64,000 nucleotides of DNA from assembly GCA_043803815.1 (NCBI GenBank), contig JAZDJR010000018.1:32001-96000 (forward strand), in the 5' to 3' direction. The notes under the pieces are model-generated. The model was given only the letters and a program-made list of their open reading frames with translations, did not search any database and was not told the DNA's origin. Positions 27,343 through 49,583 of the stretch are shown here, in pieces (position 1 is the first letter of the stretch; each line of letters begins with the position of its first letter). The position numbers and the translations under genes were made by a program. The DNA comes from Candidatus Micrarchaeota archaeon (GTDB lineage: Archaea > Iainarchaeota > Iainarchaeia > Iainarchaeales > JAGVWC01).

Positions 27343-27966
27343 ATGAAAGACGAATTGCTTTTCTTTGGTGCGGAAGCCGAAATTCACCAAACTGTTTTTT
27401 TAGGCTTGCCGGCGGCTTACAAAAAGCGCATTTTGAAAAATTACCGCGAAAAAAAACTGGACGACAAAATCCGGTTTCAGCGGATGCAAACCGAAGTGAA
27501 TCTGCTGCATAAAGCCAAAGCCGCGGGGGTGCGAACCCCGGTTGTATATGGGGTTGACAAAAAAAACGCGGGTTTTTGGATGGAATTTTTGGCAGGAAAG
27601 CGGCTCAAAGACGAACTAAATAAAAAAAAGCCGAGATTAAGCGGCTTTGCGTTGTGTTCACGAGCCGGTGAAATGATTGCGTTTTTGCATCAGAAAGGCT
27701 TGGTTCATGGGGATTTGACCACCAGCAATTTTATGGCAAGCCAAAACGAACTGGTTTTGTTCGATTTTGGATTGGGTTTTTTTTCGGAAAAAACCGAGGA
27801 TTTGGCAACCGACCTTTTGAACCTAAAAAAAACGTTTGGCGCCACGCACCCCGACCGCGAAAAAGAGTGGGAAAAACTGCTGGATTCCTACCAAAAAAAT
27901 TTTGTTTCGGGAAAAAAAGTCGTCGGACAACTGGCCAAAATCGAAAGCCGCGGCCGCTATTACTGA
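27343..27966 (+). CDS. bud32: KEOPS kinase Bud32
   Basis: GAEA, KKR..K.YR..LD, GV.TP, VHGDLTTSN, FDFGL, ED.A.DL, C-terminal RGRY. Confidence 0.94.
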   Translation: MKDELLFFGAEAEIHQTVFLGLPAAYKKRILKNYREKKLDDKIRFQRMQTEVNLLHKAKAAGVRTPVVYGVDKKNAGFWMEFLAGKRLKDELNKKKPRLSGFALCSRAGEMIAFLHQKGLVHGDLTTSNFMASQNELVLFDFGLGFFSEKTEDLATDLLNLKKTFGATHPDREKEWEKLLDSYQKNFVSGKKVVGQLAKIESRGRYY

Positions 27967-35761: not shown

Positions 35762-36040
35762 GTGAACAAAAAGGCGATGGATGAGCTCAAAGGCGTTGCG
35801 GATTTGATGCGCAATGTGGGAAAGGATTCGACCGTTCCGCGCAATATCCGTTCGACGGTTTTGATGGCTTCAGACAAAATAGGAAAGGGGGAGTGCGACA
35901 TCGAAGTCGAAATCGGCTCCGCGATTTATTCGATGGAAGACATTGCCAACGACATCAATATGCCGTCGCATACGCGCACCGAACTGTGGAACATTATCAG
36001 TTCCCTTGAGCGCATCAAAGAAACCCTCAACAAAAAATAA
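35762..36040 (+). CDS. UPF0147 family protein
   Basis: D.TVPRNIR, D.NMP.HTRT..WNI.S.LE. Confidence 0.88.
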   Translation: MNKKAMDELKGVADLMRNVGKDSTVPRNIRSTVLMASDKIGKGECDIEVEIGSAIYSMEDIANDINMPSHTRTELWNIISSLERIKETLNKK

Positions 36041-36046
36041 GGCCGC

Positions 36047-37606
36047 TTGCCCTTCAGGAAAAAAGGGTTTTGGAATTTGGAAGAAACACAGGCGATTTCG
36101 GATAACCGCGAATTCATTGTTGGTCAGGCGCAGGCCAAAAATCTGGTGCTAAGCCCGGATGCGCTTGACTTATTGGAAAAAGCGACCAAAATTGAAATCG
36201 AAAAAACATTGGACAGCCTGTCCGAACAAAACCTGTTTATTATCAAGGGCTGCGATGTCGAGTCCAAATTGCTGCGCACCAAAATCGCGCCCGCGGAAGT
36301 CGAAGTCAAGTCCCGCACGGCTTGGACTCCGATTGCCAAAGAATATTCGGCTAATTTTCGGGTCCGAAGCGACCTGCAGGTTCCGCAGGATTCGATTTGC
36401 GAGGGAACCGTCAATGATTACGTGCAGATGTTCCAAAGCCGGTTTGAATTTTTGTCGGCTTTGCTCAAAAACCGTTCGGGTTTTTCTCCGCGCCCCATCG
36501 GAAAACTGGGGGAAAACGCGGCAAAGCGCGACGTCGATTTTATCGGAATGGTTACGGACAAATGGGTCACCAAAAAGGGGCATCTGGCTTTTCGTTTCGA
36601 GGATTTGGAAAACCAGTGCATTGCCTTGGCGTTAAAAGACAAGCCTGAAATCGTCGAAAAATGCCAGCGCATTGCCTTGGACGAAGTGGTCGGGTTGCGG
36701 GGCTCCAAAGGATTCGGCGATTTGATTATTATCAAGGAAGTTTTGCAGCCCGATTTGCCCATCATGCCCCCCAAAACCATTTCCGAACCCTTGTCCGTCT
36801 GCGTGATTTCGGATATTCATGCGGGTTCCAAATTGTTTTTGGAAAAAGAATTCAAGCGGTTTTTGTCCTGGATTAACGGCAAAGTCGGCGGAGAAAGCGA
36901 ACGCGAAGCCGCGGGCAAAATCAAATACCTGTATATTTGCGGGGACAACGTGGACGGAATCGGGGTTTATCCAAACCAGGAAAAGGGCCTTTTGATTCCG
37001 ACCATTGCCGGGCAATACGAAGAGCTAGAAGAATTATTGCTGCAAATTCCCGAGTACATTGAAATTGCGATGATTCCCGGCCAGCACGATGCCGTGCGCT
37101 GGGCCGACCCCCAGCCCGCTATTTCCAAAAAATATGTTCCGCGTTTGCATGCCTTGTCCAATTTTCACCTGATGCCGTCTCCCGGCTGGACCCAGATGGA
37201 AGACATGGCGGTTGTGCAGTATCACGGCGCGTCTTTGCACGAATTGTACGGCGTGGTCAAGAACCTGAGCATGACCAAACCCGAACTGGCCATGGTGGAA
37301 ATTTTAAAGCGCCGGAGCTTTTTGACGAATTTCGGAAGCAAGCAGCCCTATGCGCCTGAAAAAAAAGATTATTCCGTAATGCGCGAAGCACCCGACTTTT
37401 ATCTTGGCGGCGACATGCATCATTACGGCACGAGCCAGTACCGCGGCTGCACGGTCATTAACGGCGCGTGCTTTCAGTCGCAAACCGACTTTGAAGTGCG
37501 CATGGGACACGTCCCGACTCCGGGAATCGTTGCCGTAATCGACCTGCAAAACCGCCAGGTCAAAACCAAAAACATGACGGATGACACCTGGGAGACGATG
37601 CCGTGA
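36047..37606 (+). CDS. polB: DNA polymerase D small subunit DP1
   Basis: OB fold plus calcineurin-like motifs ISDIH.GS, GDNVDGIGVYPNQ, PGQHD, HG.S, GDMH, FQSQT.F. Confidence 0.93.
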   Translation: MPFRKKGFWNLEETQAISDNREFIVGQAQAKNLVLSPDALDLLEKATKIEIEKTLDSLSEQNLFIIKGCDVESKLLRTKIAPAEVEVKSRTAWTPIAKEYSANFRVRSDLQVPQDSICEGTVNDYVQMFQSRFEFLSALLKNRSGFSPRPIGKLGENAAKRDVDFIGMVTDKWVTKKGHLAFRFEDLENQCIALALKDKPEIVEKCQRIALDEVVGLRGSKGFGDLIIIKEVLQPDLPIMPPKTISEPLSVCVISDIHAGSKLFLEKEFKRFLSWINGKVGGESEREAAGKIKYLYICGDNVDGIGVYPNQEKGLLIPTIAGQYEELEELLLQIPEYIEIAMIPGQHDAVRWADPQPAISKKYVPRLHALSNFHLMPSPGWTQMEDMAVVQYHGASLHELYGVVKNLSMTKPELAMVEILKRRSFLTNFGSKQPYAPEKKDYSVMREAPDFYLGGDMHHYGTSQYRGCTVINGACFQSQTDFEVRMGHVPTPGIVAVIDLQNRQVKTKNMTDDTWETMP

Positions 37607-37624
37607 GCCAAAAACAATTCGATT
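37598..37624 (+). repeat. Direct repeat, left copy (ATGCCG-tgagc-CAAAAACAATTCGATT); right copy is the DP2 start 38447-38468
   Basis: 16-nt perfect match 37609-37624 = 38453-38468, preceded by ATGCCG in both copies. Confidence 0.85.
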
Positions 37625-37697
37625 GGCAGAACCGCGGCATCCTGCTCAAGGACTTCTGCAACAAAAGAAAATGGATAGAGCACAACGAGGAATAAAA

Positions 37698-38426
37698 ATG
37701 GCGCATCTAAGCAGTTCAAGAAGAGGGCCGAGAAAAGAACCTCGACGTGGAGACAATATTTTGAATGTATTGGAACAGACACGTTGGGTTGGATGTAAGG
37801 GAACTACGCGGCGCGTCTATACCCACAATCGTGGACGTGGCTATATTGCTGACGTTGGCAATAAGACCAAGCAAGTTACTGACCTGATTTTACACCTTCA
37901 AAGAAAGGGAATTTTTGTTCCACGCATTACTAAAGTATACTCTGAAAATCATTTTGTGGAATTTGAAAAAGGGGGAAAAACATTCGCAAATTTTCTTGCA
38001 AAACTTTCCTCCGAATCAGAACGCGTGAAAAAAATGCCGGCCGCGGTCCGTCTAAGGCGGCTGCAACAGCAAAAACGAGCGAACTATCAAATATTAACAA
38101 AGATTTTCCGCATGATGGGAAGGGTGCATTCATTAGGCATCCGTCACGGTCATCCGCACCCTGGAAATATTGTTCTTCAAGGAAATCGGGTCGGCTTGAT
38201 TGATTTCAAATTTGCCCATTGGGTTTCAAAGGAATGCTGGAAATCCCATAATTCCCTCTTTTTGGGATTTTGGGATGACTATATGTGGTTGGGCAAAATC
38301 CTCAGTCGGTTAGCAATCCAACCCAAAAAAAGGACTGCTTTGTGGCGGGGACTCGTTAGTCGATATCCCTGTTCTGAAGAAATCAAACAACAATTAATGA
38401 AACGAATAGAACAATGGTCAGGATAA
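37698..38426 (+). CDS. Orphan RIO/Bud32-like kinase-fold protein with atypical catalytic loop HGHPHPGN
   Basis: GIFVPRI, MGRVHSLGIRHGHPHPGNIV, LIDF; basic N-terminus; AT-rich codon usage. Confidence 0.7.
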   Translation: MAHLSSSRRGPRKEPRRGDNILNVLEQTRWVGCKGTTRRVYTHNRGRGYIADVGNKTKQVTDLILHLQRKGIFVPRITKVYSENHFVEFEKGGKTFANFLAKLSSESERVKKMPAAVRLRRLQQQKRANYQILTKIFRMMGRVHSLGIRHGHPHPGNIVLQGNRVGLIDFKFAHWVSKECWKSHNSLFLGFWDDYMWLGKILSRLAIQPKKRTALWRGLVSRYPCSEEIKQQLMKRIEQWSG

Positions 38427-38446
38427 CAAAAAAAGAAGTGAAAAAA

Positions 38447-41400
38447 ATGCCGCAAAAACAATTCGATTTGAGATTAAAGCTGATTTGCCATCCTCCTGTG
38501 CAGAAATATTACGAACGGCTGATGGCCAAGGCCACAAAAGAAATCGCTTTGGCGCAGTTGGCGCGCAAATCGGGAGTCGACTTGGAATCCGACATCGAGA
38601 CTTTGCCGGCCTTGGACTTGGCGGACCGCTGCGAAAGCATCATCGGTCCCGCGGGAATCGCGAAGCGTTACCGCGAAGAATTTGTGAAAACCAACGACCG
38701 GATTAAAACGATTTTTTTGCTGTTCCGCGAAATGATGGAGCAAACCGGATGGTACCGCGAGGCCGACCCGCAAAAACGCCTGGACCAGTCGATTCGAACC
38801 GCCTTGGTGCTGGTAACCGAAGGCGCGGTTGTTGCTCCGCTGGACGGCGTTCCGCGGATATTGATTTCAAAGAATCCGGACGGTTCGCAGTACGTGGATA
38901 TTTATTTTGCGGGGCCGATTCGCGCGGCCGGCGGAACCGCGACCGTGTTTCCCCTGATTTTGGGGGATTTTGCGCGCAAACTGCTGAATCTGGACCGATA
39001 CAAGCCCACCGACGACGAGGTGGAGCGGTATGTGGAAGAAACCGCGATTTATGACGAAATCGTTTCGCGGCAATACAAATTAAAGGAAGACGAAGTGCGG
39101 AAAATTATCCGCAATTGCACGGTGTGCATTAACGGAGAGCCGACCGAAGACCGCGAAGTGTCCGTGCACCGCGACTTGGACCGCGTCCTTTCCAATCAGG
39201 TTCGCGGCGGCGCGTGCCTGGTCATCAGCGAAGGAGTCGCGTTAAAGGCGCGGAAAATCATTTCGTATGCCAAGCAGCTTGAACTGGACTGGAACTGGCT
39301 TGAACAAATAATTAAAGTCGAAAAAAGCGACGGTTCGAAAAAAGGATTGAGCGTTAATGACAATTTTTTGGAGCGCATGGCCGCCGGACGTCCCATTTTT
39401 TCCTATCCCTTGCGAATCGGCGGTTTTCGCCTGCGCTACGGAAGAGGCCGCAATACCGCGGCCATGGGAAAAGCGATTCATCCGGCTACCATGTATGTTT
39501 TGGACGAATTTATCGCGGTTGGAACGCAGTTAAAAGTCGAGCGCCCGGGAAAAGCCGCGGAAGTGTTTCCCTGCGATTCGATTGAAGGGCCGATTGTGCG
39601 GTTGTTCAACGGCACGGTTTTGCAAATCGATTCGGTTGCCATGGCTAATCAGTATCGCACCCAAATCGAACGGATACTGTTTTTGGGGGACCTGCTCGCA
39701 ACGGTAGGGGACTTCCGGAAAAGCGGCCATCCCTTGGTTCCGGTCGGATACTGCGAGGAATGGTGGCTTTGCGAACTTTCAAAAGCGCTAAGCGAAGGAA
39801 AAAAAACAGAGGTATCGCTTGAAGCGATTCTAAAAAAACCCAAAATAGTTTCGATTAAGCAATCCCTGCAATTAAACAGCGATTTGGGGGTGCCCTTGCA
39901 TTCCAATTTTGTTTATTATTATAAGGCATTGGATTCCAAATTATTCATCGAATTGTACAACGGGTTGTATGGCGCAAGGCAGCTGCAAGGCGAAAACGGA
40001 ATCGGGTTGGAACTTTCAAACGAAGCCGATGTCAAAAGCGCCTTTGAAAAAATCGGGGTTCCGCATTCGCTTGAAAACGACGCCAAAACCATCCGAATCG
40101 GCGAGCAAACCGGCTTGGCTTTGCTGAAAACATTCGGCGTTTTGGACAACCGGACCATTGACCCGACCCAAATCACCAACGACAATATTTTGGAAGTATT
40201 GAACCTGACAAGCGGCTTAATCATCCGCGACAAATGCGGCACTTTTATCGGCTGCCGCATGGGCCGACCCGAAGCAAGCCATCCGCGCAAAATGATTGGA
40301 AATCCCCACACTTTGTTTCCCATCGGAACGTTTGGCGGCCCCACGCGCTCGATTAACAAAGCCGCGGTCACGAACGAAAAAAGCATTTCGCAAAAAAACG
40401 AAATCGAAGTCGAAATCGCCTTGTTTGAATGCCCCGAGTGCCGCCAAATTTCGTCTTTTCCGCAATGCGGCCATTGCCGAGCCAAAACCATTCCGCGGTA
40501 CTGGTGCAAAAAATGCGAAGCCCCCGCCGCTCCCGACCGTTGCCCGAAGTGCGCGGGAAAAACGAACCGGTATAGCTTGCGCAAAATTGAGCTGAACGAA
40601 ATCGTCAGCCAGGCCGCCAAAAACGTGGGAATCAAAATGCCGCCTTTGGTCAAAGGGGTCAGGGGATTAATCAACGAAACCAAGGAAGTCGAGCCATTGG
40701 AAAAAGGGATTTTGCGCGCGAATTACGACTTGCACGTGTTTCGCGACGCGACAATTCGCTATGAAATGCTTAATGCGGCCATCACGCATTTTAAGCCGGT
40801 TGAAATTCAGACTCCGGTTAGCCGGCTTCGCGAACTCGGATACGAATTTGACATGGATGGAAAACCGCTGGAGACCGAAGACCAAATGGTGGAATTGTTT
40901 CCGCAGGATGTCATCATTAACGAGGAAGCGGGGGATTTTTTTGTAAAAGTCGCCAAGTTTTTGGACGACGAGCTTTCGCGCCTGTACGGAGTGACGGAAT
41001 ATTTCAAAAAAAACAAGCGCGACGAAATGGTCGGCGAACTCGTACTCGGCCTTGCGCCGCACACTTCCGCAGCGGTGGTCGGAAGAATCATCGGCTACAC
41101 CAAATCGCGCCTCGGCTGGGGGCACCCGTATTTTCACCTGGCCAAGCGGCGCAACATCGACGGCGACCAGGATTCCATGATGCTTTTGATGGATGCCCTG
41201 CTGAATTTTTCGAATCATTACCTGCCGTCCAGCCGCGGCGGAAGAATGGACGCGCCTTTGGTGTTCACGATTGCGCTTACGCCAAACGAAGTGGACGACG
41301 AAGTGTACGATATGGATACCGGAACAAGCTATCCGCTGGAATTGTATGAAAAAGCGCAGGAATTTGCCAAAGCCGAAAGCGTTTCCATCGATATTATCCT

Positions 41401-41902
41401 AAAACGGCTTGGAAAACCCGAACAATATTCCGGAATCAAGTTTTCGCATTCCACCGGCCGCTTTGACGAAGGACCGCACACCACGCGCTACGTGCAATTG
41501 CAAAGCATGGAAGACAAGTTAAACGCGCAAATCCGGCTGCAGAAAAAAATCGCGGCTGTTGACCTCAAGAATTCCTTGGAACTGGTGCTGCAGTCCCATT
41601 TTTTGCCGGATATTGTCGGAAACATCCGCAGTTTTTCAAAGCAGCAGATGCGCTGCACCAAATGCAACGCCAAATACCGGCGCGTTCCGCTTAAAGGCCT
41701 TTGCACCAAATGCGGCGGCCATATTATCCTGACGATTGCGCAGGGTTCGGTACGCAAATATTTGGAACTGGCCAAAAACGTGGTGCACCAAAACAACCTG
41801 TCCAATTATCTAGCCCAGCGCCTGGACCTGATTGAAGACGAAATTAATTCCGTGTTCAAACCCGAAAAGACGACGCAAAAATCCTTGTTCGAATTCGCGT
41901 GA
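38447..41902 (+). CDS. polC: DNA polymerase D large subunit DP2 (no intein)
   Basis: TEG.V.APLDG, AGPIRAAGGT, GGFRLRYGR, RMGRPE, HLAKRRNIDGDQD, GGRMDAPL, C-terminal Zn fingers. Confidence 0.97.
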   Translation: MPQKQFDLRLKLICHPPVQKYYERLMAKATKEIALAQLARKSGVDLESDIETLPALDLADRCESIIGPAGIAKRYREEFVKTNDRIKTIFLLFREMMEQTGWYREADPQKRLDQSIRTALVLVTEGAVVAPLDGVPRILISKNPDGSQYVDIYFAGPIRAAGGTATVFPLILGDFARKLLNLDRYKPTDDEVERYVEETAIYDEIVSRQYKLKEDEVRKIIRNCTVCINGEPTEDREVSVHRDLDRVLSNQVRGGACLVISEGVALKARKIISYAKQLELDWNWLEQIIKVEKSDGSKKGLSVNDNFLERMAAGRPIFSYPLRIGGFRLRYGRGRNTAAMGKAIHPATMYVLDEFIAVGTQLKVERPGKAAEVFPCDSIEGPIVRLFNGTVLQIDSVAMANQYRTQIERILFLGDLLATVGDFRKSGHPLVPVGYCEEWWLCELSKALSEGKKTEVSLEAILKKPKIVSIKQSLQLNSDLGVPLHSNFVYYYKALDSKLFIELYNGLYGARQLQGENGIGLELSNEADVKSAFEKIGVPHSLENDAKTIRIGEQTGLALLKTFGVLDNRTIDPTQITNDNILEVLNLTSGLIIRDKCGTFIGCRMGRPEASHPRKMIGNPHTLFPIGTFGGPTRSINKAAVTNEKSISQKNEIEVEIALFECPECRQISSFPQCGHCRAKTIPRYWCKKCEAPAAPDRCPKCAGKTNRYSLRKIELNEIVSQAAKNVGIKMPPLVKGVRGLINETKEVEPLEKGILRANYDLHVFRDATIRYEMLNAAITHFKPVEIQTPVSRLRELGYEFDMDGKPLETEDQMVELFPQDVIINEEAGDFFVKVAKFLDDELSRLYGVTEYFKKNKRDEMVGELVLGLAPHTSAAVVGRIIGYTKSRLGWGHPYFHLAKRRNIDGDQDSMMLLMDALLNFSNHYLPSSRGGRMDAPLVFTIALTPNEVDDEVYDMDTGTSYPLELYEKAQEFAKAESVSIDIILKRLGKPEQYSGIKFSHSTGRFDEGPHTTRYVQLQSMEDKLNAQIRLQKKIAAVDLKNSLELVLQSHFLPDIVGNIRSFSKQQMRCTKCNAKYRRVPLKGLCTKCGGHIILTIAQGSVRKYLELAKNVVHQNNLSNYLAQRLDLIEDEINSVFKPEKTTQKSLFEFA

Positions 41903-41957
41903 ACGGCGATTGACGGAAAAAAACGCACAGATAAGTATTCTGAACCAAACAACAGTA

Positions 41958-42302
41958 ATGGCAGCCAAACAGGATAAGCAAGAAAACAAATTCTTGTATT
42001 TTCTTGATGATGAAGAACAAAACTATATTTTTGTCCGCATTCGCATTATGAATGACGGCGTTACTTTGGAGTCATTTGCCATGATGCAAGTTTCAATCAT
42101 CAACCAAAAAAAACACGAAATCACGCGATATGATTCAAGCATCCGCGAAGCCATTAATGTCCATAAGTGGTACTGCAAAGGAAACCCAAAAGAGTTTATC
42201 CAAAAACCGTTAACCTGGGAAACCTTAATCGGGTTTGAAGAAGAAATCTGGCAAAAATGGCGGCAGTATTTGTTTTTATACAAGGAAAAGAAAGGTTTAT
42301 AA
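41958..42302 (+). CDS. Putative toxin-like protein upstream of an HTH gene (DUF6516-like architecture)
   Basis: I.RYDS...H motif, small size, paired with a downstream HTH gene. Confidence 0.5.
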   Translation: MAAKQDKQENKFLYFLDDEEQNYIFVRIRIMNDGVTLESFAMMQVSIINQKKHEITRYDSSIREAINVHKWYCKGNPKEFIQKPLTWETLIGFEEEIWQKWRQYLFLYKEKKGL

Positions 42303-42318
42303 CGACAAAAGTTATAAA
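42296..42318. promoter_or_regulatory. Palindrome TTTATAAC-N7-GTTATAAA upstream of the HTH gene
   Basis: Perfect 8-bp arms. Confidence 0.55.
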
Positions 42319-42332
42319 TAGTTTGTGGGAAC

Positions 42333-42695
42333 ATGAAAAAACTGGTATTTAAAATCGGCGGCACTTTTCGCCAGGATGCCGTGGCGTTTGCCAAAGGTTC
42401 AAAGAAACCCGAATCGGGAACCACTACGGTTTATTTGAGAGATTTCAAGCACCTTCGCGAAATGCTGACCCCGAAAAAATTGGCTTTGCTGGATGCCATG
42501 ATTTCTTTTGCCGATGCAAAGCAAAACGTTTCCCAAATTGCCAAAAAACTGAAGCGAAAACAGGAAGCGGTCAGCCGCGACCTGGCGGTTCTGGAAAAAA
42601 ACGGGTTAATACACAAAACCAAGCACAAACAGCATGTACATCCTGCTCTTTCGTTTTCCATTATTCAAATCGAGCTGGGTAAAGCAATCGCATAG
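42333..42695 (+). CDS. HVO_A0114-like HTH DNA-binding protein (putative antitoxin)
   Basis: LREMLTPKKLALL...VSQIAKKLKRKQEAVSRDLAVLEKNGLI. Confidence 0.75.
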   Translation: MKKLVFKIGGTFRQDAVAFAKGSKKPESGTTTVYLRDFKHLREMLTPKKLALLDAMISFADAKQNVSQIAKKLKRKQEAVSRDLAVLEKNGLIHKTKHKQHVHPALSFSIIQIELGKAIA

Positions 42696-42713
42696 TTTAC
42701 TTTAAATCTTGTT

Positions 42714-43493
42714 TTAGGATTGCGGCGTCCATTTTACCGGCGTCAGATAGGGAATGTGCAAAACGCCAGCCTGGGCAAGAATAAGGATTAAAACAATCAG
42801 CCCCAAAACCGCGATTCGAAAACGGTTGTCGGTGCCGAGTTTTTCCCGAAACCATTTTGAAGCCGGATTGTCCCACAAAAATCCGAGAATGCCTTTGATG
42901 ATGTCGACTAAATAGCGAATCCAGTTGCCGGGGTTTCGCAAGTCGGAAACGGTTTCCCCGACCAGTTCATGCCCTGTTTTGGAGCGGTAGGGAACGTCGG
43001 TTTCGGAAACCAGTTCGCTGTTTACGGCACTGAATTGGAATTCCAATTGCCGACCTTCGATTGAAGCGTCGCAAAGCCAGACCGGAACGTAAAGTGGCCG
43101 AAGGCCGGAAATGACAATGCTTTCTTTTCCCAAATTGTATTTGGCCGCGATTTTTAACTGGGACAATCGTTCGGCTTCTCTTCCGTTGATTCGAAAACGC
43201 ACCACTTTGGTGTGGCTTTCGTCGGGACGAAGGACCAATTGGCTTTCGAATTCATCAAGCAAAGGCCCCAGTTCGTCCTCGATTTCCGCGGTCTGGCCGT
43301 TCATCGCGGTAACGCCGGTTTCCCCTTCGCTCGTGGAAACCGCTCCGCTTTCGTCCGCGGTTTCGACAAACGAGTGGTAGCCGAAAAACCAGTAGGGAAA
43401 AAACCATAATTCGGGGTGGTTTATTTCATAATCGTCCCATTCTTTTTCTTCCAACAGTTCCTTGACTTGGGCTATGACTTCTTCTGAAGTCAT
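42714..43493 (-). CDS. Hypothetical membrane-anchored protein with duplicated L.(F/Y).P.W modules
   Basis: LWFFPYWFF and LYVPVWL motifs, acidic body, C-terminal TM. Confidence 0.65.
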   Translation of the reverse strand: MTSEEVIAQVKELLEEKEWDDYEINHPELWFFPYWFFGYHSFVETADESGAVSTSEGETGVTAMNGQTAEIEDELGPLLDEFESQLVLRPDESHTKVVRFRINGREAERLSQLKIAAKYNLGKESIVISGLRPLYVPVWLCDASIEGRQLEFQFSAVNSELVSETDVPYRSKTGHELVGETVSDLRNPGNWIRYLVDIIKGILGFLWDNPASKWFREKLGTDNRFRIAVLGLIVLILILAQAGVLHIPYLTPVKWTPQS

Positions 43494-44223: not shown

Positions 44224-45453
44224 ATGACTTTTACTTCGGATTCTCCCAATTTGTTTGACCGCCTGTACAAGGACCAAAAAACGGTTTTTTTGGACAAAAA
44301 CGCGATTTCGCCGCATTTTGTTCCCAGCCATCTGCCGTTTCGCGAGAACCAATTAAACGAAATTTCGCAGATTTTTTCCGTTGCGTTAAGCGGAAAAAAA
44401 CCCGGCAATCTTTTTTTGTACGGCAAGCCAGGCGCGGGAAAAACCGCGGTATGCAAGCGCGTTTTATCCCAATTATTGGAGTTTGGCAGGAACAAATCGC
44501 TTTCGGTAAGCGGAACCTACATCAATTGCCGGACGCACAATTCCAAGTACCGCGTGCTTTCCAAAATCGTCAAGGACCTGTTTTCCGAAGAAAGCTTTTT
44601 GGGCTATTCGGCGTCGTTTATGTACGACAAAATGCTGGACGGCATTTCCAAAAACAAATTTTCATACATTGTTATTTTGGATGAAATCGACAAAATCAAG
44701 GACTTAGACGAGCTTGTTTATTCGCTTACGCGCTCAAACGACGAGCTTTCCGCGGGCAGCGTCGCGATTACGGGAATTTCAAACAATGTTTTTTTCAAGG
44801 ACCGATTGGACCCGCGAAGCAAGTCAAGCCTGTGCGAGCACGAAATGGTTTTCAGCCCGTATAACGCCGAAGAGCTTCGCCAAATTTTAAACGAGCGCGT
44901 CAATGTCGCGTTCAAGCCCGATTGCATCGAGGAAAGCGCGGTTAATCTGGCCGCGGCAATGGCGGCCGGCGAAAGCGGCGATGCGCGCCAAGCCGTCATG
45001 CTTTTGCAAAAAGCCGGCGAACTGTGCGATGCCAAAAAGCTTGCTAAAATAACGGATGTTGAAGTGCAGGCCGCGAAAAAAAAAGTCGAGGAAGAAATTA
45101 TTTTGAACATGATTGCGACTTTGCCCAAGCATCAGCAATTATTGCTTTTGGCGATTGCCAATTTGTCCGTGCAAAAGCGTTCGCAGCAGCGCATCGCGGG
45201 GGATAGCCGGGAACAGCCCTTGTTTTCGGGGGAAGTATACGAGGAATACGCGAAAACCGCGAAAAGCCTTCGGGAATCGCCGGTGTCTTCGCGCTGGTAC
45301 CGCCAGTACGTTTCCGAACTGGAAATGTTCGGCTTGTTGATTACCGCGGCGTCAGGCCAGGGCATCCGCGGAAACACGCGGCTGATTAAATTGAGCTTTG
45401 ACCCCAAAAAAATAATGGACGCCGTGCAAAAAGAAATCGCGGCGAACAATTAG
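44224..45453 (+). CDS. cdc6: Orc1/Cdc6 replication initiator
   Basis: LP.RE.Q, YGKPGAGKT (Walker A), ILDEID (Walker B), LDPR.KSSL, GDAR, wHTH with ELEMFGL. Confidence 0.95.
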   Translation: MTFTSDSPNLFDRLYKDQKTVFLDKNAISPHFVPSHLPFRENQLNEISQIFSVALSGKKPGNLFLYGKPGAGKTAVCKRVLSQLLEFGRNKSLSVSGTYINCRTHNSKYRVLSKIVKDLFSEESFLGYSASFMYDKMLDGISKNKFSYIVILDEIDKIKDLDELVYSLTRSNDELSAGSVAITGISNNVFFKDRLDPRSKSSLCEHEMVFSPYNAEELRQILNERVNVAFKPDCIEESAVNLAAAMAAGESGDARQAVMLLQKAGELCDAKKLAKITDVEVQAAKKKVEEEIILNMIATLPKHQQLLLLAIANLSVQKRSQQRIAGDSREQPLFSGEVYEEYAKTAKSLRESPVSSRWYRQYVSELEMFGLLITAASGQGIRGNTRLIKLSFDPKKIMDAVQKEIAANN

Positions 45454-45825: not shown

Positions 45826-47973
45826 TTAGCCGTACCGCGAACCGCGACTTTCGCGCTTTTTTTGTCCCAGATTCTGCTTGATTTGTTCCGCGATTTTTTC
45901 TCCGCCCAAAAGGCGTCCCAGGTCCGCAACGTCGATTTTTTGCAGGTCCAAGACCGTTCGCACGTTGTTTTGGAACAGGCGCCTGGCGCGTGACCGCCCG
46001 ATGCCGCGCACTTCGCATAGCATCAAGAGTTCTTCTCGCACGCCGAACTGCAATCGCTTTCGCAGTTTGGCCAGTTTTTCGGGATGATTTTCCAGTTTTA
46101 GCAGCTGGCAGAGTTCAAAAGCCGCGTATCCCAGCCAGTCGCAAACCAATAGTTTGGAGCGCAAAATGCCCGGCGCCACGTTAAACTCGTCCGCAAGGCG
46201 GCTGTCGGGGGTTTCGTTTATCCATTGCTCGAAAACTTTTGCTGTGAAAAACTTTTTGGCCAGATTCGGGTCGGCATAGAGTTCGACGTTGATGTTAACG
46301 GGAATTTCGTCCTGCGAGTTGACAAGTTCTTCCAAAAGCCGCGGTTCCATTTTTTTAGGGTAATTCAGCAAAGGCGAAAGTTCGCCGGTATTGGAAAACA
46401 AAAACAGGTAAGTCATCGCGGAAAACGGCCTTTTTTGCTTTAGCGCGGCAATCAGACCGGCCGCGGAAAGCGGGTCGAGGTACAGTTCGGATACGCGTTT
46501 TCCAAGTTCGGTGGCTTCGAATCTTTTTTCGCTGGATTTTACGAATCCGAGTTCTTCCAGTTCAACCAGTATCCCGCTTAGTTTGGACAAAAGTTCTGTG
46601 GTTTGCTTGAACTGGAACGCGTAAAATGTCTTGGAAAAAAAATCTTCCAAAGACTGCAAATCAAACACGAAATTGGTCGCAATCGCGGCCAGCAAGTGGG
46701 TTCGCAGCACGGGTTCAATCGACAGGCGCGACTCGACTTCTTCGATTTCGCCGCGGACATAATTTTCCATTAAATCGTCGATTTCGGATTCGCTGGACGC
46801 CAAAATCACGGCTTCGCCGGCAACGTCAAACTTGGGCCTTCCCGCGCGACCCGCCATTTGCTTGTACTCGGAAACCGAAATGCGCGTGGAACCGCCCCAG
46901 GAGCCGTCGTAGCGGTGCAGAGAGGGAATAATTACGCGAAACGCGGGTACGTTAATTCCGGCGGCCAAAGTAGGCGTTGAACTGATTAGTTTAATCCTGT
47001 TTTTTTTAAACGCGGATTCGACGATGCGACGCTGTTTTTCAACGAGTCCCGCGTGGTGAAACGCCGCGCCGCGGAAAACCAACTGCGCGAGTTTTCGGCA
47101 CTGGTCGGTCGGCTGTTCCAGCGCATTGAGAATGGCAACGGACGCTTTTTGGAGAATTTCGCGGTCCTGTTCCGAAAGTTTTTTTTCTGTAATCGCGGAT
47201 AATTTTTCTGCGAAACTTTCGCTTTTTGGCCGGCTGTTGGCAAACACGAGGCATTGCTTGTTTTTTTGGTTTAATGTGTCTGCAACGATTTTGGCCACGC
47301 TTTCTTTTTCAGATGCGGCAATTTTTTCGACGCGATTTTCAAATTTTATTTTGCCGTCAAAATAAACGCCTTCGTCAAGTGTGACGGGGCGATAATCGCT
47401 TTGCACCAAATCCGCGGACAGCCAGTCCGCAATCTGGCTGGAATTGGGAATAGTCGCGCTTAATGCCAATACGCGAAGCTGCGGATTGATTAGGCGCAGT
47501 TTGGTAATTGCCATTTCGACTGCGGGGCCGCGGTCGCTGCCCATGATATGCACTTCGTCCACAACCAGCAATCCGACTTGCGAAAGCCAGTCGGCTTTGT
47601 GGCGAAGCAAGGATTCCAGCTTTTCGGTCGTGGAAAAAATCAAATCGTAGTTTTTCAGGTACTGACTGCTGGAATCAAAGTCTCCGGTGGAAATCGCCAT
47701 GCGGATTTTGAGTTGGCCAAACTTGGTTTTCCAGTCGGAATAATGCTCGCTGGCCAATGCTCGAAGCGGGCAGGTGTAAACGACTTTTTGTTTTTTGTTC
47801 AAAATCGAGTCAAGCGCGCAGAGTTCGGCAACCACGGTTTTGCCCGAAGCTGTGGGCGCGGCTACGACTACGCTTTGGTCAAACAGGCGGCTGGAAAGCG
47901 CCTTTTCCTGCATGGGATTAAACTTTTCAAAGCCGTTGGCTTGGCGAACCAACTCGGGAATGTCAAAGGTCAT
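45826..47973 (-). CDS. hel308: Ski2-like ATP-dependent DNA helicase Hel308
   Basis: APTASGKT, VVDEVH, LSATI.N, FHHAGL, TPTLAAGIN.PA, QMAGRAGRP, C-terminal HhH. Confidence 0.93.
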   Translation of the reverse strand: MTFDIPELVRQANGFEKFNPMQEKALSSRLFDQSVVVAAPTASGKTVVAELCALDSILNKKQKVVYTCPLRALASEHYSDWKTKFGQLKIRMAISTGDFDSSSQYLKNYDLIFSTTEKLESLLRHKADWLSQVGLLVVDEVHIMGSDRGPAVEMAITKLRLINPQLRVLALSATIPNSSQIADWLSADLVQSDYRPVTLDEGVYFDGKIKFENRVEKIAASEKESVAKIVADTLNQKNKQCLVFANSRPKSESFAEKLSAITEKKLSEQDREILQKASVAILNALEQPTDQCRKLAQLVFRGAAFHHAGLVEKQRRIVESAFKKNRIKLISSTPTLAAGINVPAFRVIIPSLHRYDGSWGGSTRISVSEYKQMAGRAGRPKFDVAGEAVILASSESEIDDLMENYVRGEIEEVESRLSIEPVLRTHLLAAIATNFVFDLQSLEDFFSKTFYAFQFKQTTELLSKLSGILVELEELGFVKSSEKRFEATELGKRVSELYLDPLSAAGLIAALKQKRPFSAMTYLFLFSNTGELSPLLNYPKKMEPRLLEELVNSQDEIPVNINVELYADPNLAKKFFTAKVFEQWINETPDSRLADEFNVAPGILRSKLLVCDWLGYAAFELCQLLKLENHPEKLAKLRKRLQFGVREELLMLCEVRGIGRSRARRLFQNNVRTVLDLQKIDVADLGRLLGGEKIAEQIKQNLGQKKRESRGSRYG

Positions 47974-48046
47974 ACTATTATGGTTGACCGTTGCTTTTTT
48001 TGGGGGTTGGTCAAGCACCTGAATTTGGGAGTTTTGGGGCAAGGGA

Positions 48047-48292
48047 TTACAACTCGCTTTGGGTTTCGCTTGTGTTTTGAAGCATGACGAACTCGTAGGC
48101 TTTTTGCAGGGCAAGGACTGCTTTGGGCAGGTCTGCGGGTTTGAAGGAAGAGCTGGATTTCCATTCCCCGCTTTCGGTTTTGTATCGCTTTTCAATCGAA
48201 ACCGAAAAATACGGCTTTCCTTCTTTGCCCGCGTTTTCCCAAATCGCGGCGGTTATGCCGGCCACCGAGATTTTTTGGATTGGGGCAGTCAT
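48047..48292 (-). CDS. Small putative ssDNA-binding protein (PC4/Whirly-like fold)
   Basis: ITAAIWEN...YFSVSIEKRYK...GEWKSSSSF...DLPK; strong SD AGGAGGTGA. Confidence 0.65.
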   Translation of the reverse strand: MTAPIQKISVAGITAAIWENAGKEGKPYFSVSIEKRYKTESGEWKSSSSFKPADLPKAVLALQKAYEFVMLQNTSETQSEL

Positions 48293-49092: not shown

Positions 49093-49142
49093 AAAAAATG
49101 AAGCCAAAAAAGAAATTATAATAAAACTCTATAATGATGATT

Positions 49143-49583
49143 ATGAAAGAAGAAATGAAATTCAATAAGGTCTTAATCCGAATAGCGTCTTTTGAACAAG
49201 TAATGCAAGAGACCGTTGAAACCCTGTGGAATGTCAAAAAAGGAAAAAAGGCCAAGGCCGCGCGGAAAACCCTCACTTTTCCGGACCTTGAAACCCTGCG
49301 GGAAATCCTTACGGATGAACGAATCCGCCTGCTCCAAACCCTGCACACCCAAAAACCCAAAAGCGTCTATGAACTCGCCAAAAAACTGGGCCGCAAATAT
49401 CCCAACGTGTTCAACGACGTAAAAAAACTCGAGAACCTGGGACTCGTCACGCTAAACCTAGAAAAAAACAAGTCGGAACCCACGGCAACCTACAAAAGCC
49501 TCAAAATCGAAATACCCCTGACAATTCCCATACTAAATCGCTTCAAGGTTCAACAAGCCAAACACAATCGCGTCATTCCTTGA
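49143..49583 (+). CDS. HVO_A0114-like HTH DNA-binding protein (putative antitoxin)
   Basis: LTF.D...L..ILT..R..LL......P.S.YELAK.LGR.Y.NV..DV..LE.LGLV. Confidence 0.8.
   Translation: MKEEMKFNKVLIRIASFEQVMQETVETLWNVKKGKKAKAARKTLTFPDLETLREILTDERIRLLQTLHTQKPKSVYELAKKLGRKYPNVFNDVKKLENLGLVTLNLEKNKSEPTATYKSLKIEIPLTIPILNRFKVQQAKHNRVIP

Follow-up and report, generated by a model that had tools for sequence, protein, structure and literature searches.

In an uncultured Candidatus Micrarchaeota archaeon, the operon encoding the small (DP1) and large (DP2) subunits of the replicative DNA polymerase PolD is interrupted by an 822-nt segment that holds a single kinase-like gene, and the beginning of DP2 is present on both sides of it. 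The DNA analysed here (the window) is a stretch of 64,000 nucleotides, positions 32001-96000 of contig C18 (JAZDJR010000018.1) in the metagenome-assembled genome GCA_043803815.1 (G000; 1.08 Mb in 36 contigs, 85.6% complete). The segment is a derived insertion at a duplicated gene start, no mobility gene lies near it, and its anatomy recurs at four other loci of the genome, where the cargo is a toxin-antitoxin (TA) gene pair. An earlier, sequence-only reading of the window had proposed att-like integration of an orphan gene. We tentatively prefer homology-assisted integration of DNA from a related lineage, in which no local integrase or transposase would be needed; this is our leading reading, although we rate it as slightly short of probable.

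A derived insertion at a duplicated gene start

DP1 lies on the forward strand at window positions 36047..37606 (longest open reading frame, ORF, 519 aa; Pfam DNA_pol_E_B and Metallophos; TGA at 37604-37606), its true start may be somewhat downstream of the longest-ORF start, and a homologue was present in 41/41 relatives searched. DP2 follows on the same strand at 38447..41902 (1151 aa, MPQKQFDL...; Pfam PolC_DP2_N, PolC_DP2_central and PolC_DP2_cat, E-values of 4e-90 to 3e-120). The inserted segment occupies 37625..38446 (+), with borders taken from a groundwater contig of about 94% identity that joins 37624 directly to 38447 apart from a short spacer described below. Its only cargo, a 242-aa gene at 37698..38426, is oriented like DP1 and DP2 inside the PolD operon and encodes a Bud32/PRPK-like atypical kinase fold with the catalytic-loop variant HGHPHPGN. 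A Shine-Dalgarno-like GAGGA, read from the sequence, is located at 37687..37691 (+), 6 nt upstream of the cargo ATG.

Both sides of the segment carry the 16-mer CAAAAACAATTCGATT on the forward strand. The left copy (37609..37624) is preceded by ATGCCG at 37598-37603 and then TGAGC, whereas the right copy (38453..38468), comprising DP2 codons 3-8, directly follows ATGCCG at 38447-38452. The copies are 844 nt apart and each is in frame with a start codon. On the left, this frame is a 30-codon ORF (VSQKQFDW..., 37603..37695, +) whose GTG overlaps the DP1 stop (GTGA), whose codons 3-7 are a copy of DP2 codons 3-7, and whose TAA (37693-37695) ends 2 nt ahead of the cargo ATG at 37698. The repeat, the two ATGCCG copies, the small ORF, the cargo and the DP2 start all proved to be where the sequence-only reading had put them. 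The DP2 ribosome-binding and start module on the right (38438..38452, +) consists of GTGA, six further A and ATG CCG, and is the second copy of the 15-mer GTGAAAAAAATGCCG; the other copy is internal to the cargo, at Met113 (38025..38039, +). The first 12 nt of GTGAAAAAAATGCCG, GTGAAAAAAATG, occur 13 times in the genome, mostly at gene starts, and are a common ribosome-binding and start module, which partly explains the GTGAAAAAAATGCCG pair. The copy within the cargo could be an internal start or a templated junction patch.

The duplication at PolD can be described as 16 perfect nucleotides or as 22/27 with a 5-nt indel. Exact CAAAAACAATTCGATT was found at only these two sites in the 1.08-Mb assembly; with one mismatch allowed there were four further sites, compared to two for the reversed control. 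Exact direct repeats of at least 16 nt within 1.5 kb numbered 69 genome-wide, against six in each of the mirror and reverse-complement controls, and we estimate the chance that a background pair would bracket exactly this insert at 1e-6 to 1e-5, i.e., very unlikely.

The 822-nt segment is derived, since DP1 and DP2 abut in all three same-family genomes compared and a contig from an independent assembly lacks it. In G001 and G002 the DP2 start shares 4 nt with the DP1 stop (GTGA and ATGA, respectively), the GTG or ATG concerned being the sole or best DP2 start candidate, and in G003 start and stop are 9 nt apart; none of the three has an insert. The single DP2 start of G003 (ATG GAA CAA AAA AAA TTT GAT TTA) matches 14/16 letters of the 16-nt core. 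The independent assembly comes from groundwater run X1, in which one contig of 1464 nt, about 94% identical to the window, covers 37525-37624, continues with 60 other letters, and then covers 38447-39750, with 83 differences in 1304 nt of DP2. Window positions 37661-38415 were covered by no X1 contig. This contig confirms both flanks and lacks the cargo, which argues against an assembly artefact. A single-gene insertion at the DP2 5′ end, as first suggested, was thus borne out. The expected empty site is seen in the three same-family genomes but not in the nearest relative, which retains both flanks with 60 letters in place of 37625-38446 rather than a clean one-copy site. Wider searches returned more distant sequences: with the DP2 N-terminus, no metagenome contig was closer than 61% identity and no genome contig exceeded 64%, and a protein search with DP2 residues 1-435 gave nothing above 72%.

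The absence of a local integrase also held. Pfam scans of the cargo and of the ORFs at 26-53 kb of the window found no recombinase or transposase; the flanking ORFs matched SecDF, a NOG1-type GTPase, UPF0147, PolD, HTH regulators, Orc1/Cdc6 and a Hel308-type helicase. No meaningful terminal inverted repeats or attC-like structure were seen in 37560-38500, and an Rfam scan of 36000-43000 gave no match. Elsewhere in G000 there are two tyrosine recombinases (C7:6896-7381 and C29:58225-58719); no serine recombinase was found in this 85.6% complete genome, and no TnpB match reached the cut-off.

Recurrence of the anatomy at four other loci

All local direct repeats of G000 were listed, and the list contained four further loci at which 0.7-0.8 kb of cargo lies between duplicated ends of an adjoining conserved gene. 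The genome-wide scan that the sequence-only reading had recommended therefore yielded four more cassettes. Three carry VapBC pairs and one carries a HEPN-MNT pair, and the perfect cores vary in length: 16 nt at PolD, 32 on C19, 46 on C7, 24 on C4 and 16 on C35. No motif common to the five cores was apparent by inspection (no formal motif search was run).

On C19, a VapBC pair (PIN_2, 6.9e-27; VapB, 5e-8) lies on the opposite strand within the 5′ end of a PrgI-like gene, with a core of 32 nt and 39/42 identity overall. Here the upstream gene's stop codon and the displaced start overlap (ATGA), and the ORF opened by this start, 252 codons long and antisense to the cassette, is in our reading spurious. 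The first five codons of the two copies differ in sequence but specify nearly the same peptide (MSYSI and MSYQI). In six relatives the upstream gene is immediately followed by the PrgI-like gene, and the same probably holds for one of two G000 paralogues inspected. On C7, a PIN and MazE-like pair lies upstream of, and on the same strand as, the signal recognition particle (SRP) RNA gene (RF01857, 113.6 bits), and the first 46 nt of the RNA are copied perfectly 730 nt upstream. The 30 nt ahead of the RNA start, which include a promoter-like A-rich box, are about 75% alike between the copies, and the original promoter of the SRP RNA may drive the cassette.

The remaining two loci follow the same pattern at different gene ends. 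On C4, the insert is a HEPN and nucleotidyltransferase pair at the 3′ end of ScpB; a core of 24 nt gives way to about 75% identity, which extends past the stop codon. Downstream lies the displaced copy of the final ~25 ScpB codons, now diverged, and the peptide (N/S)FDDSFLD is kept in both copies. The ORFs downstream of ScpB differ in G001-G003, where they look like a small heat-shock protein and RNase HII by sequence reading alone. On C35, the duplicated end is the 5′ end of a DUF192 gene, the cargo is a PIN_2 VapBC pair and the core is 16 nt long. Past the core, imperfect matches continue for 6/7 nt on C7, 5/7 nt on C19 and about 20 nt with a gap on C35, and all five loci have an abrupt border beside the perfect core. 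At the corresponding positions in relatives, these TA genes were absent from the nine SRP RNA, seven ScpB and nine PrgI-like loci fetched.

Several other repeats from the list were considered. A cluster of RHH, PIN and nucleotidyltransferase genes at C18:127000-129600, outside the window, contains a 17-nt direct repeat (127691/128611) that brackets RHH and PIN, and is a possible sixth case. On C12, a 47-nt repeat of about 79% identity (15-nt perfect core; 2338/3701) lies just downstream of the stops of two consecutive minus-strand genes, and could be a shared terminator or another cassette border. Repeats at C35 61887/63238 were rejected as a border, being a chance 17-mer in two unrelated enzymes; a C11 repeat (6126/7711) was set aside because it falls among three consecutive similar-sized genes assumed to be tandem paralogues; and repeats on C5, C14 and C16 were set aside as they lie inside single long genes.

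Proposed homology-assisted integration and its alternatives

A property of these loci that hints at the mechanism is the uneven similarity of the two copies. At the better-resolved loci the copies are mosaics, with a perfect core next to the cargo border and an outer part that is only 60-80% identical. The outer parts still look functional, as the changes are synonymous or conservative in codons, or leave a promoter-like box in place. Because a perfect core stands beside a diverged but working-looking outer part, the two copies would have different origins, one resident and one incoming. As judged from the sequences, the mosaic fits poorly with uniform drift after one in-place duplication; for uniform decay of a single duplication the corresponding figure is 0.75^46, or about 2e-6.

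The composition of the cargo, which departs from that of DP1 and DP2 (GC3 values below), also speaks for an incoming segment. Homology-assisted integration would have proceeded as follows. In the ancestral state, DP1 and DP2 would have abutted, with the DP2 start overlapping the DP1 stop. The donor would have been a related archaeon in which the cargo lay beside its own slightly different copy of the DP2 start; the incoming copy would have paired with the resident DP2 5′ end, and the segment would have entered a few codons inside it. Joining could have occurred by a single crossover of a circular intermediate carrying the cargo and the gene-end copy, or through homology-facilitated illegitimate recombination, in which one join is homologous and the other illegitimate. 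In either case GTG-AGC plus the 16-nt core would be the native DP2 start in its displaced position, which remains coupled to the DP1 stop and opens a meaningless 30-codon ORF, and GTGA, six further A and ATG-CCG plus the core would be the substitute start from which DP2 is now translated. The cargo would share the transcript of the PolD operon, with its own GAGGA serving for translation.

The 30-codon ORF is most simply the displaced old DP2 start; G001 has the same GTGA overlap. The sequence-only reading had instead seen it as a relay that keeps up translational coupling. Such coupling is not required, since the cargo has its own Shine-Dalgarno-like GAGGA, and a displaced native start is the simpler account. 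Since the relic ORF stops 2 nt ahead of the cargo ATG, ribosomes may re-initiate there; however, an arrangement of this kind has about a 10% chance of arising without selection (a rough estimate), and the relay idea is therefore unproven.

A number of observations weigh against homology-assisted integration, or at least limit what the PolD locus can contribute to it. The diverged outer part at PolD is only 6 nt long (GTGAGC vs. ATGCCG), so this locus alone cannot separate the reading from its rivals, and the donor-copy argument is carried over to it by analogy from the other four loci. ATGCCG is also present ahead of the left copy at a 5-nt offset, and a 27-nt in-place duplication followed by a 5-nt deletion fits equally well. 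In the ~94% identical relative, 60 letters separate the two apparently retained repeat copies, a state not predicted by any simple form of the model. Nor did a donor arrangement turn up: there was no kinase-family gene beside DP2 in 79 other DP2 loci from metagenomes and genomes, and the cargo homologues of G003, G002 and G011 are on contigs other than the PolD contig. Insertions at the same junction in three other genomes of the order (G011, G027 and G013) have no direct repeats at their borders. A genome-wide scan of gene starts against their upstream 2.5 kb gave no excess over the downstream control (17 vs. 22 at a score of at least 16), and the duplicated-gene-end footprint is accordingly rare and not the product of a pervasive process.

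Among the alternatives, an in-place long target duplication fares best, and we regard it as a credible but rather unlikely explanation. In this scenario, a DNA fragment was captured at the DP1/DP2 boundary through a staggered break or through template switching during replication, the 16-27 nt between the nicks were copied on both sides, and later differences arose, e.g., a 5-nt deletion that created the ATG start. The presence of ATGCCG plus the 16-mer on both sides with a 5-nt indel is what it would leave behind, lengths that vary by locus (16, 32, 46, 24 and 16 nt) suit it, and the anatomy matches that of bacterial restriction-modification inserts described earlier (Furuta et al., 2010; PMC2853133). 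However, perfect cores of 24-46 nt on C7, C19 and C4 stand beside 15-45 nt that are only 60-80% identical, which uniform drift would not lead one to expect, and the near relative has both copies rather than one.

The att-like integration of the sequence-only reading would require a recombinase acting in trans, in the manner of elements that borrow the host Xer recombinase or an integron integrase. Direct repeats do bracket the cargo exactly, the difference between G000 and its near relative (822 nt vs. 60 letters) begins and ends exactly at the repeat borders, two tyrosine recombinases are encoded elsewhere in the genome, and a substitute gene end restores the target gene. In classical integrative elements, the attachment site likewise carries a replacement end of the tRNA or tmRNA target, so that the element-borne end restores it, and some such elements use a host recombinase in trans. 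Like them, the insertions described here have direct repeats at both ends and an element-borne copy that restores the gene while the native end is displaced. They differ in having no integrase, in being shorter than 1 kb, in targeting the starts or ends of protein genes and the 5′ end of SRP RNA, and in showing no shared core. The five cores differ in length and by inspection have no motif in common, so that the two recombinases would have to supply as many as five specificities; the cassette and its surroundings contain no recombinase, the searches above found neither an attC-like or inverted-repeat structure nor a serine recombinase, and border repeats were missing from the other PolD-junction cargo examined. 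We therefore consider site-specific integration unlikely, and this part of the sequence-only reading is not upheld.

It is less likely still that the duplication of the DP2 start predates the kinase gene and has no connection with it. Here a small early event, common to the near relative, would have produced the order DP1, old start, short spacer and new start, and the kinase gene would have been added afterwards, either in a separate event or when recombination in DP1 and DP2 replaced the allele. The ~94% identical contig, with its left flank to 37624, its right flank from 38447 and only 60 letters between, is what suggests this history. Yet two events would have had to share the same borders, the 60 letters could just as well be what is left of a deleted and decayed cargo, as neutral divergence is high, and four other loci show cargo and duplication together.

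An assembly artefact, in which a chimeric join of strain variants made the repeat, is very improbable: the genome is metagenome-assembled in 36 contigs and X1 (word share 0.07) was the sole run found, but two misjoins would be needed, a 16-nt repeat is shorter than the usual assembler word sizes, the independent X1 assembly shows both flanks including the left 16-mer region, and the cargo has an unbroken ORF from a family that is common in the order. Target-primed reverse transcription, suggested by an A-rich tract at the cargo end, was rejected (the C19 cargo carries an AT-rich promoter-like stretch and is on the opposite strand). The segment does not match an insertion sequence (IS) or miniature inverted-repeat (MITE-type) transposon (there are no terminal inverted repeats, and duplication lengths vary from 16 to 46 nt), nor an integron gene cassette (37560-38500 has no attC-type inverted repeat, and no integrase is nearby).

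Of the kinds of insertion already described, insertion with long target duplication is the closest, the host domain, the cargo classes and the site in an essential replication operon being new. It is said to have been recognised by Nobusato et al. in 2000 for restriction-modification units. A later survey described restriction-modification inserts that lack mobility genes and are flanked by unique direct repeats (e.g., 46 bp), often spanning a start or stop codon; no archaeal case survived its screen (Furuta, Abe and Kobayashi, 2010; PMC2853133). Those inserts share with ours a small unit without integrase or transposase, unique direct repeats that often lie at a gene start or stop, an intact target, empty sites in relatives and a differing GC content. 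The cargo here is instead a kinase-like gene, with TA pairs at the four other loci, the host is a DPANN-type archaeon, and the repeat copies are mosaic, pointing to a homologous donor copy. By the >30-bp criterion of that survey, the PolD repeat (16-27 nt) falls below the limit, whereas C19 (32 nt, 39/42) and C7 (46 nt) exceed it. The full-text literature search, as far as its listings and abstracts go, returned no PolD-operon insertions and no archaeal TA cassettes with duplicated gene ends, which is no proof of absence.

For the joining step, the nearest precedent is homology-facilitated illegitimate recombination, documented in transformable bacteria, where one homologous anchor is combined with an illegitimate join at 3-10 bp of microhomology (de Vries and Wackernagel, 2002, and Prudhomme et al., 2002, as summarised in PMC6382021). 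The proposed anchor and illegitimate join are alike in needing no mobile-element enzyme. The process has been shown by experiment in bacteria with RecA, and a duplicated anchor end is not the outcome usually reported for it. The bacterial experiments reportedly used anchors longer than the 50-110 nt implied here.

The cargo family and the PolD operon as an insertion site

The cargo had been described as an orphan with a kinase fold, of which the fold was supported by modelling and the orphan status was not upheld. The AF2 model (pLDDT 85, pTM 0.79) has PRPK, Bud32 and WaaP as its best Foldseek matches, with E-values of about 1e-6 and TM-scores of about 0.6, and thus predicts a protein-kinase-like fold. 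In sequence comparisons, the 242-aa protein matched Pfam APH (5.3e-5), with Kdo and ABC1 as weak matches, and scored below threshold with NCBIfam arch_bud32 (1.8e-9; 37.4 bits, cut-off 125 bits). With PADLOC, the sole matches were weak ones to kinase domains (PD-T4-6, 1.6e-4). A protein search for close relatives returned only the window's own protein, but matches at E<=0.01 were present in 16/41 genomes (G000 included), with up to four per genome and identities of 24-44%, the weakest being true Bud32 genes. A profile of 15 family members, run against 1.84 billion proteins, recovered 441 cluster representatives at E<=1e-10.

The family consensus reads G..H..G..HGHPH..NI....R..LIDFKLA, followed by DW, F..DY and YP blocks. 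In the alignment, Asn157 of the catalytic loop and the metal-binding Asp169 are invariant and His152 is nearly so, standing where Bud32-type matches (HGDLT) have the catalytic Asp. The cargo is therefore a member of a fast-evolving Bud32-like kinase-fold family with HGH for HGD. Like Bud32/PRPK of the KEOPS complex, it is predicted to have a kinase fold of about 230 aa in which Asn157 and Asp169 are kept, and it differs in its HGHPH loop and in an arch_bud32 score far under the cut-off. A separate canonical Bud32/RIO-like gene is present in G000 at window positions 27343-27966. The AT-richness first attributed to the cargo is real in its third codon positions, where its GC content (GC3) of 0.384 is at the 4th percentile of ORFs of at least 150 aa (DP1 and DP2, 0.62-0.63), but overall GC is only modestly low (0.433 vs. 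0.466 for the genome).

The family is patchy across genomes and occurs in varied gene contexts. The region around the G003 homologue is syntenic with contig C32 of G000, which carries other genes in its place. This variable region of G000 (C32 5815-6378) contains a LAGLIDADG-type homing-endonuclease-like ORF and a pilin-like ORF. In G002 the homologue matches as two pieces in different frames, which suggests a frameshift.

The junction between DP1 and DP2 was surveyed in 196 genomes of the order; in 136 besides G000, among the matches listed, the ends of both genes were on one contig, and the counts that follow refer to these. The gap between the aligned ends was less than 300 nt in 124/136 genomes (median 60 nt) and at least 300 nt in 12/136, and nine of the 136 carried discrete inserted ORFs. 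Different cargo at the same junction, as the sequence-only reading had anticipated, does therefore occur in the order, although not between border repeats in the three cases mentioned above. G104, G105, G106 and G108 have in common a conserved same-strand gene of about 200 aa without family assignment, which was ruled out as a member of the kinase family (hhalign probability 0.2). G011 (285 aa) and G027 (255 aa) have two different genes of unknown family, each with a start that overlaps the DP1 stop and an end that abuts or overlaps the DP2 start. A TnpB/Cas12f-like gene lies on the opposite strand in G013, as does a 128-aa ORF in G177, and G075 has a TrmB-family regulator and a small hydrophobic-looking ORF without family match. 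The long gaps of G048 and G142 are low-complexity N-terminal extensions of DP2, and that of G174 is a low-complexity spacer. In G107, inspected in addition to the 12, an ORF related to type II and type IIG methyltransferases precedes DP2.

Other features of PolD genes in the order were noted in passing. DP2 frames reach 1600-1700 aa in several relatives (G038, G026, G049, G054, G075, G169 and others), and a 972-aa DP1 frame on G028:C44 matches as two separated pieces; these lengths and breaks suggest inteins. Some public contigs with archaeal PolD about 55-60% identical to that of the window are titled Chloroflexota, Falkowbacteria or Thaumarchaeota, likely through binning or labelling errors. 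Within the window, an AT-rich stretch (GC 0.37-0.43) directly after DP2, at 41832-42800, contains a 156-aa ORF with a weak DUF7718 match and an HVO_A0114-type HTH gene, and may be another variable islet; a second HVO_A0114-type gene is found at 49134-49583. Orc1/Cdc6 (44224-45453) and a Hel308-type helicase (45826-48195) lie 2.3-6 kb downstream of DP2, and the PolD operon is therefore probably near a replication origin.

These insertions provide a concrete footprint that can be read from sequence: the end of a gene is duplicated, and the two copies are identical in a core but diverged farther out. The footprint shows how an archaeon whose genome is very small and nearly devoid of intergenic space gains small selfish or defence-type genes without mobile-element enzymes, and it extends the poorly understood insertion with long target duplication of bacteria to archaea and to TA cargo. 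Even the replicative polymerase operon is a recurrent insertion site in this order. For annotators, the spurious ORFs left by such insertions (30 codons here, 252 on C19) are a warning. The cargo itself draws attention to a widespread, unstudied Bud32-like family with His in place of the catalytic Asp.

Homology-assisted entry from related lineages is suggested as a mechanism that can be tested. A bolder version, which we put forward as speculation and think improbable as a whole, is that small selfish modules (TA pairs and the Bud32-like kinase) move in these streamlined archaea independently of recombinases, each with a portable imitation of a conserved gene end. This end would aim integration by short homology and would also replace the displaced end, supplying a promoter or a ribosome-binding site and start codon, with the PolD operon as a preferred landing pad. 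If so, a portable gene end would work like an attachment site without an integrase, and the PolD operon near Orc1/Cdc6 would be favoured as its flanks are conserved across lineages and always expressed.

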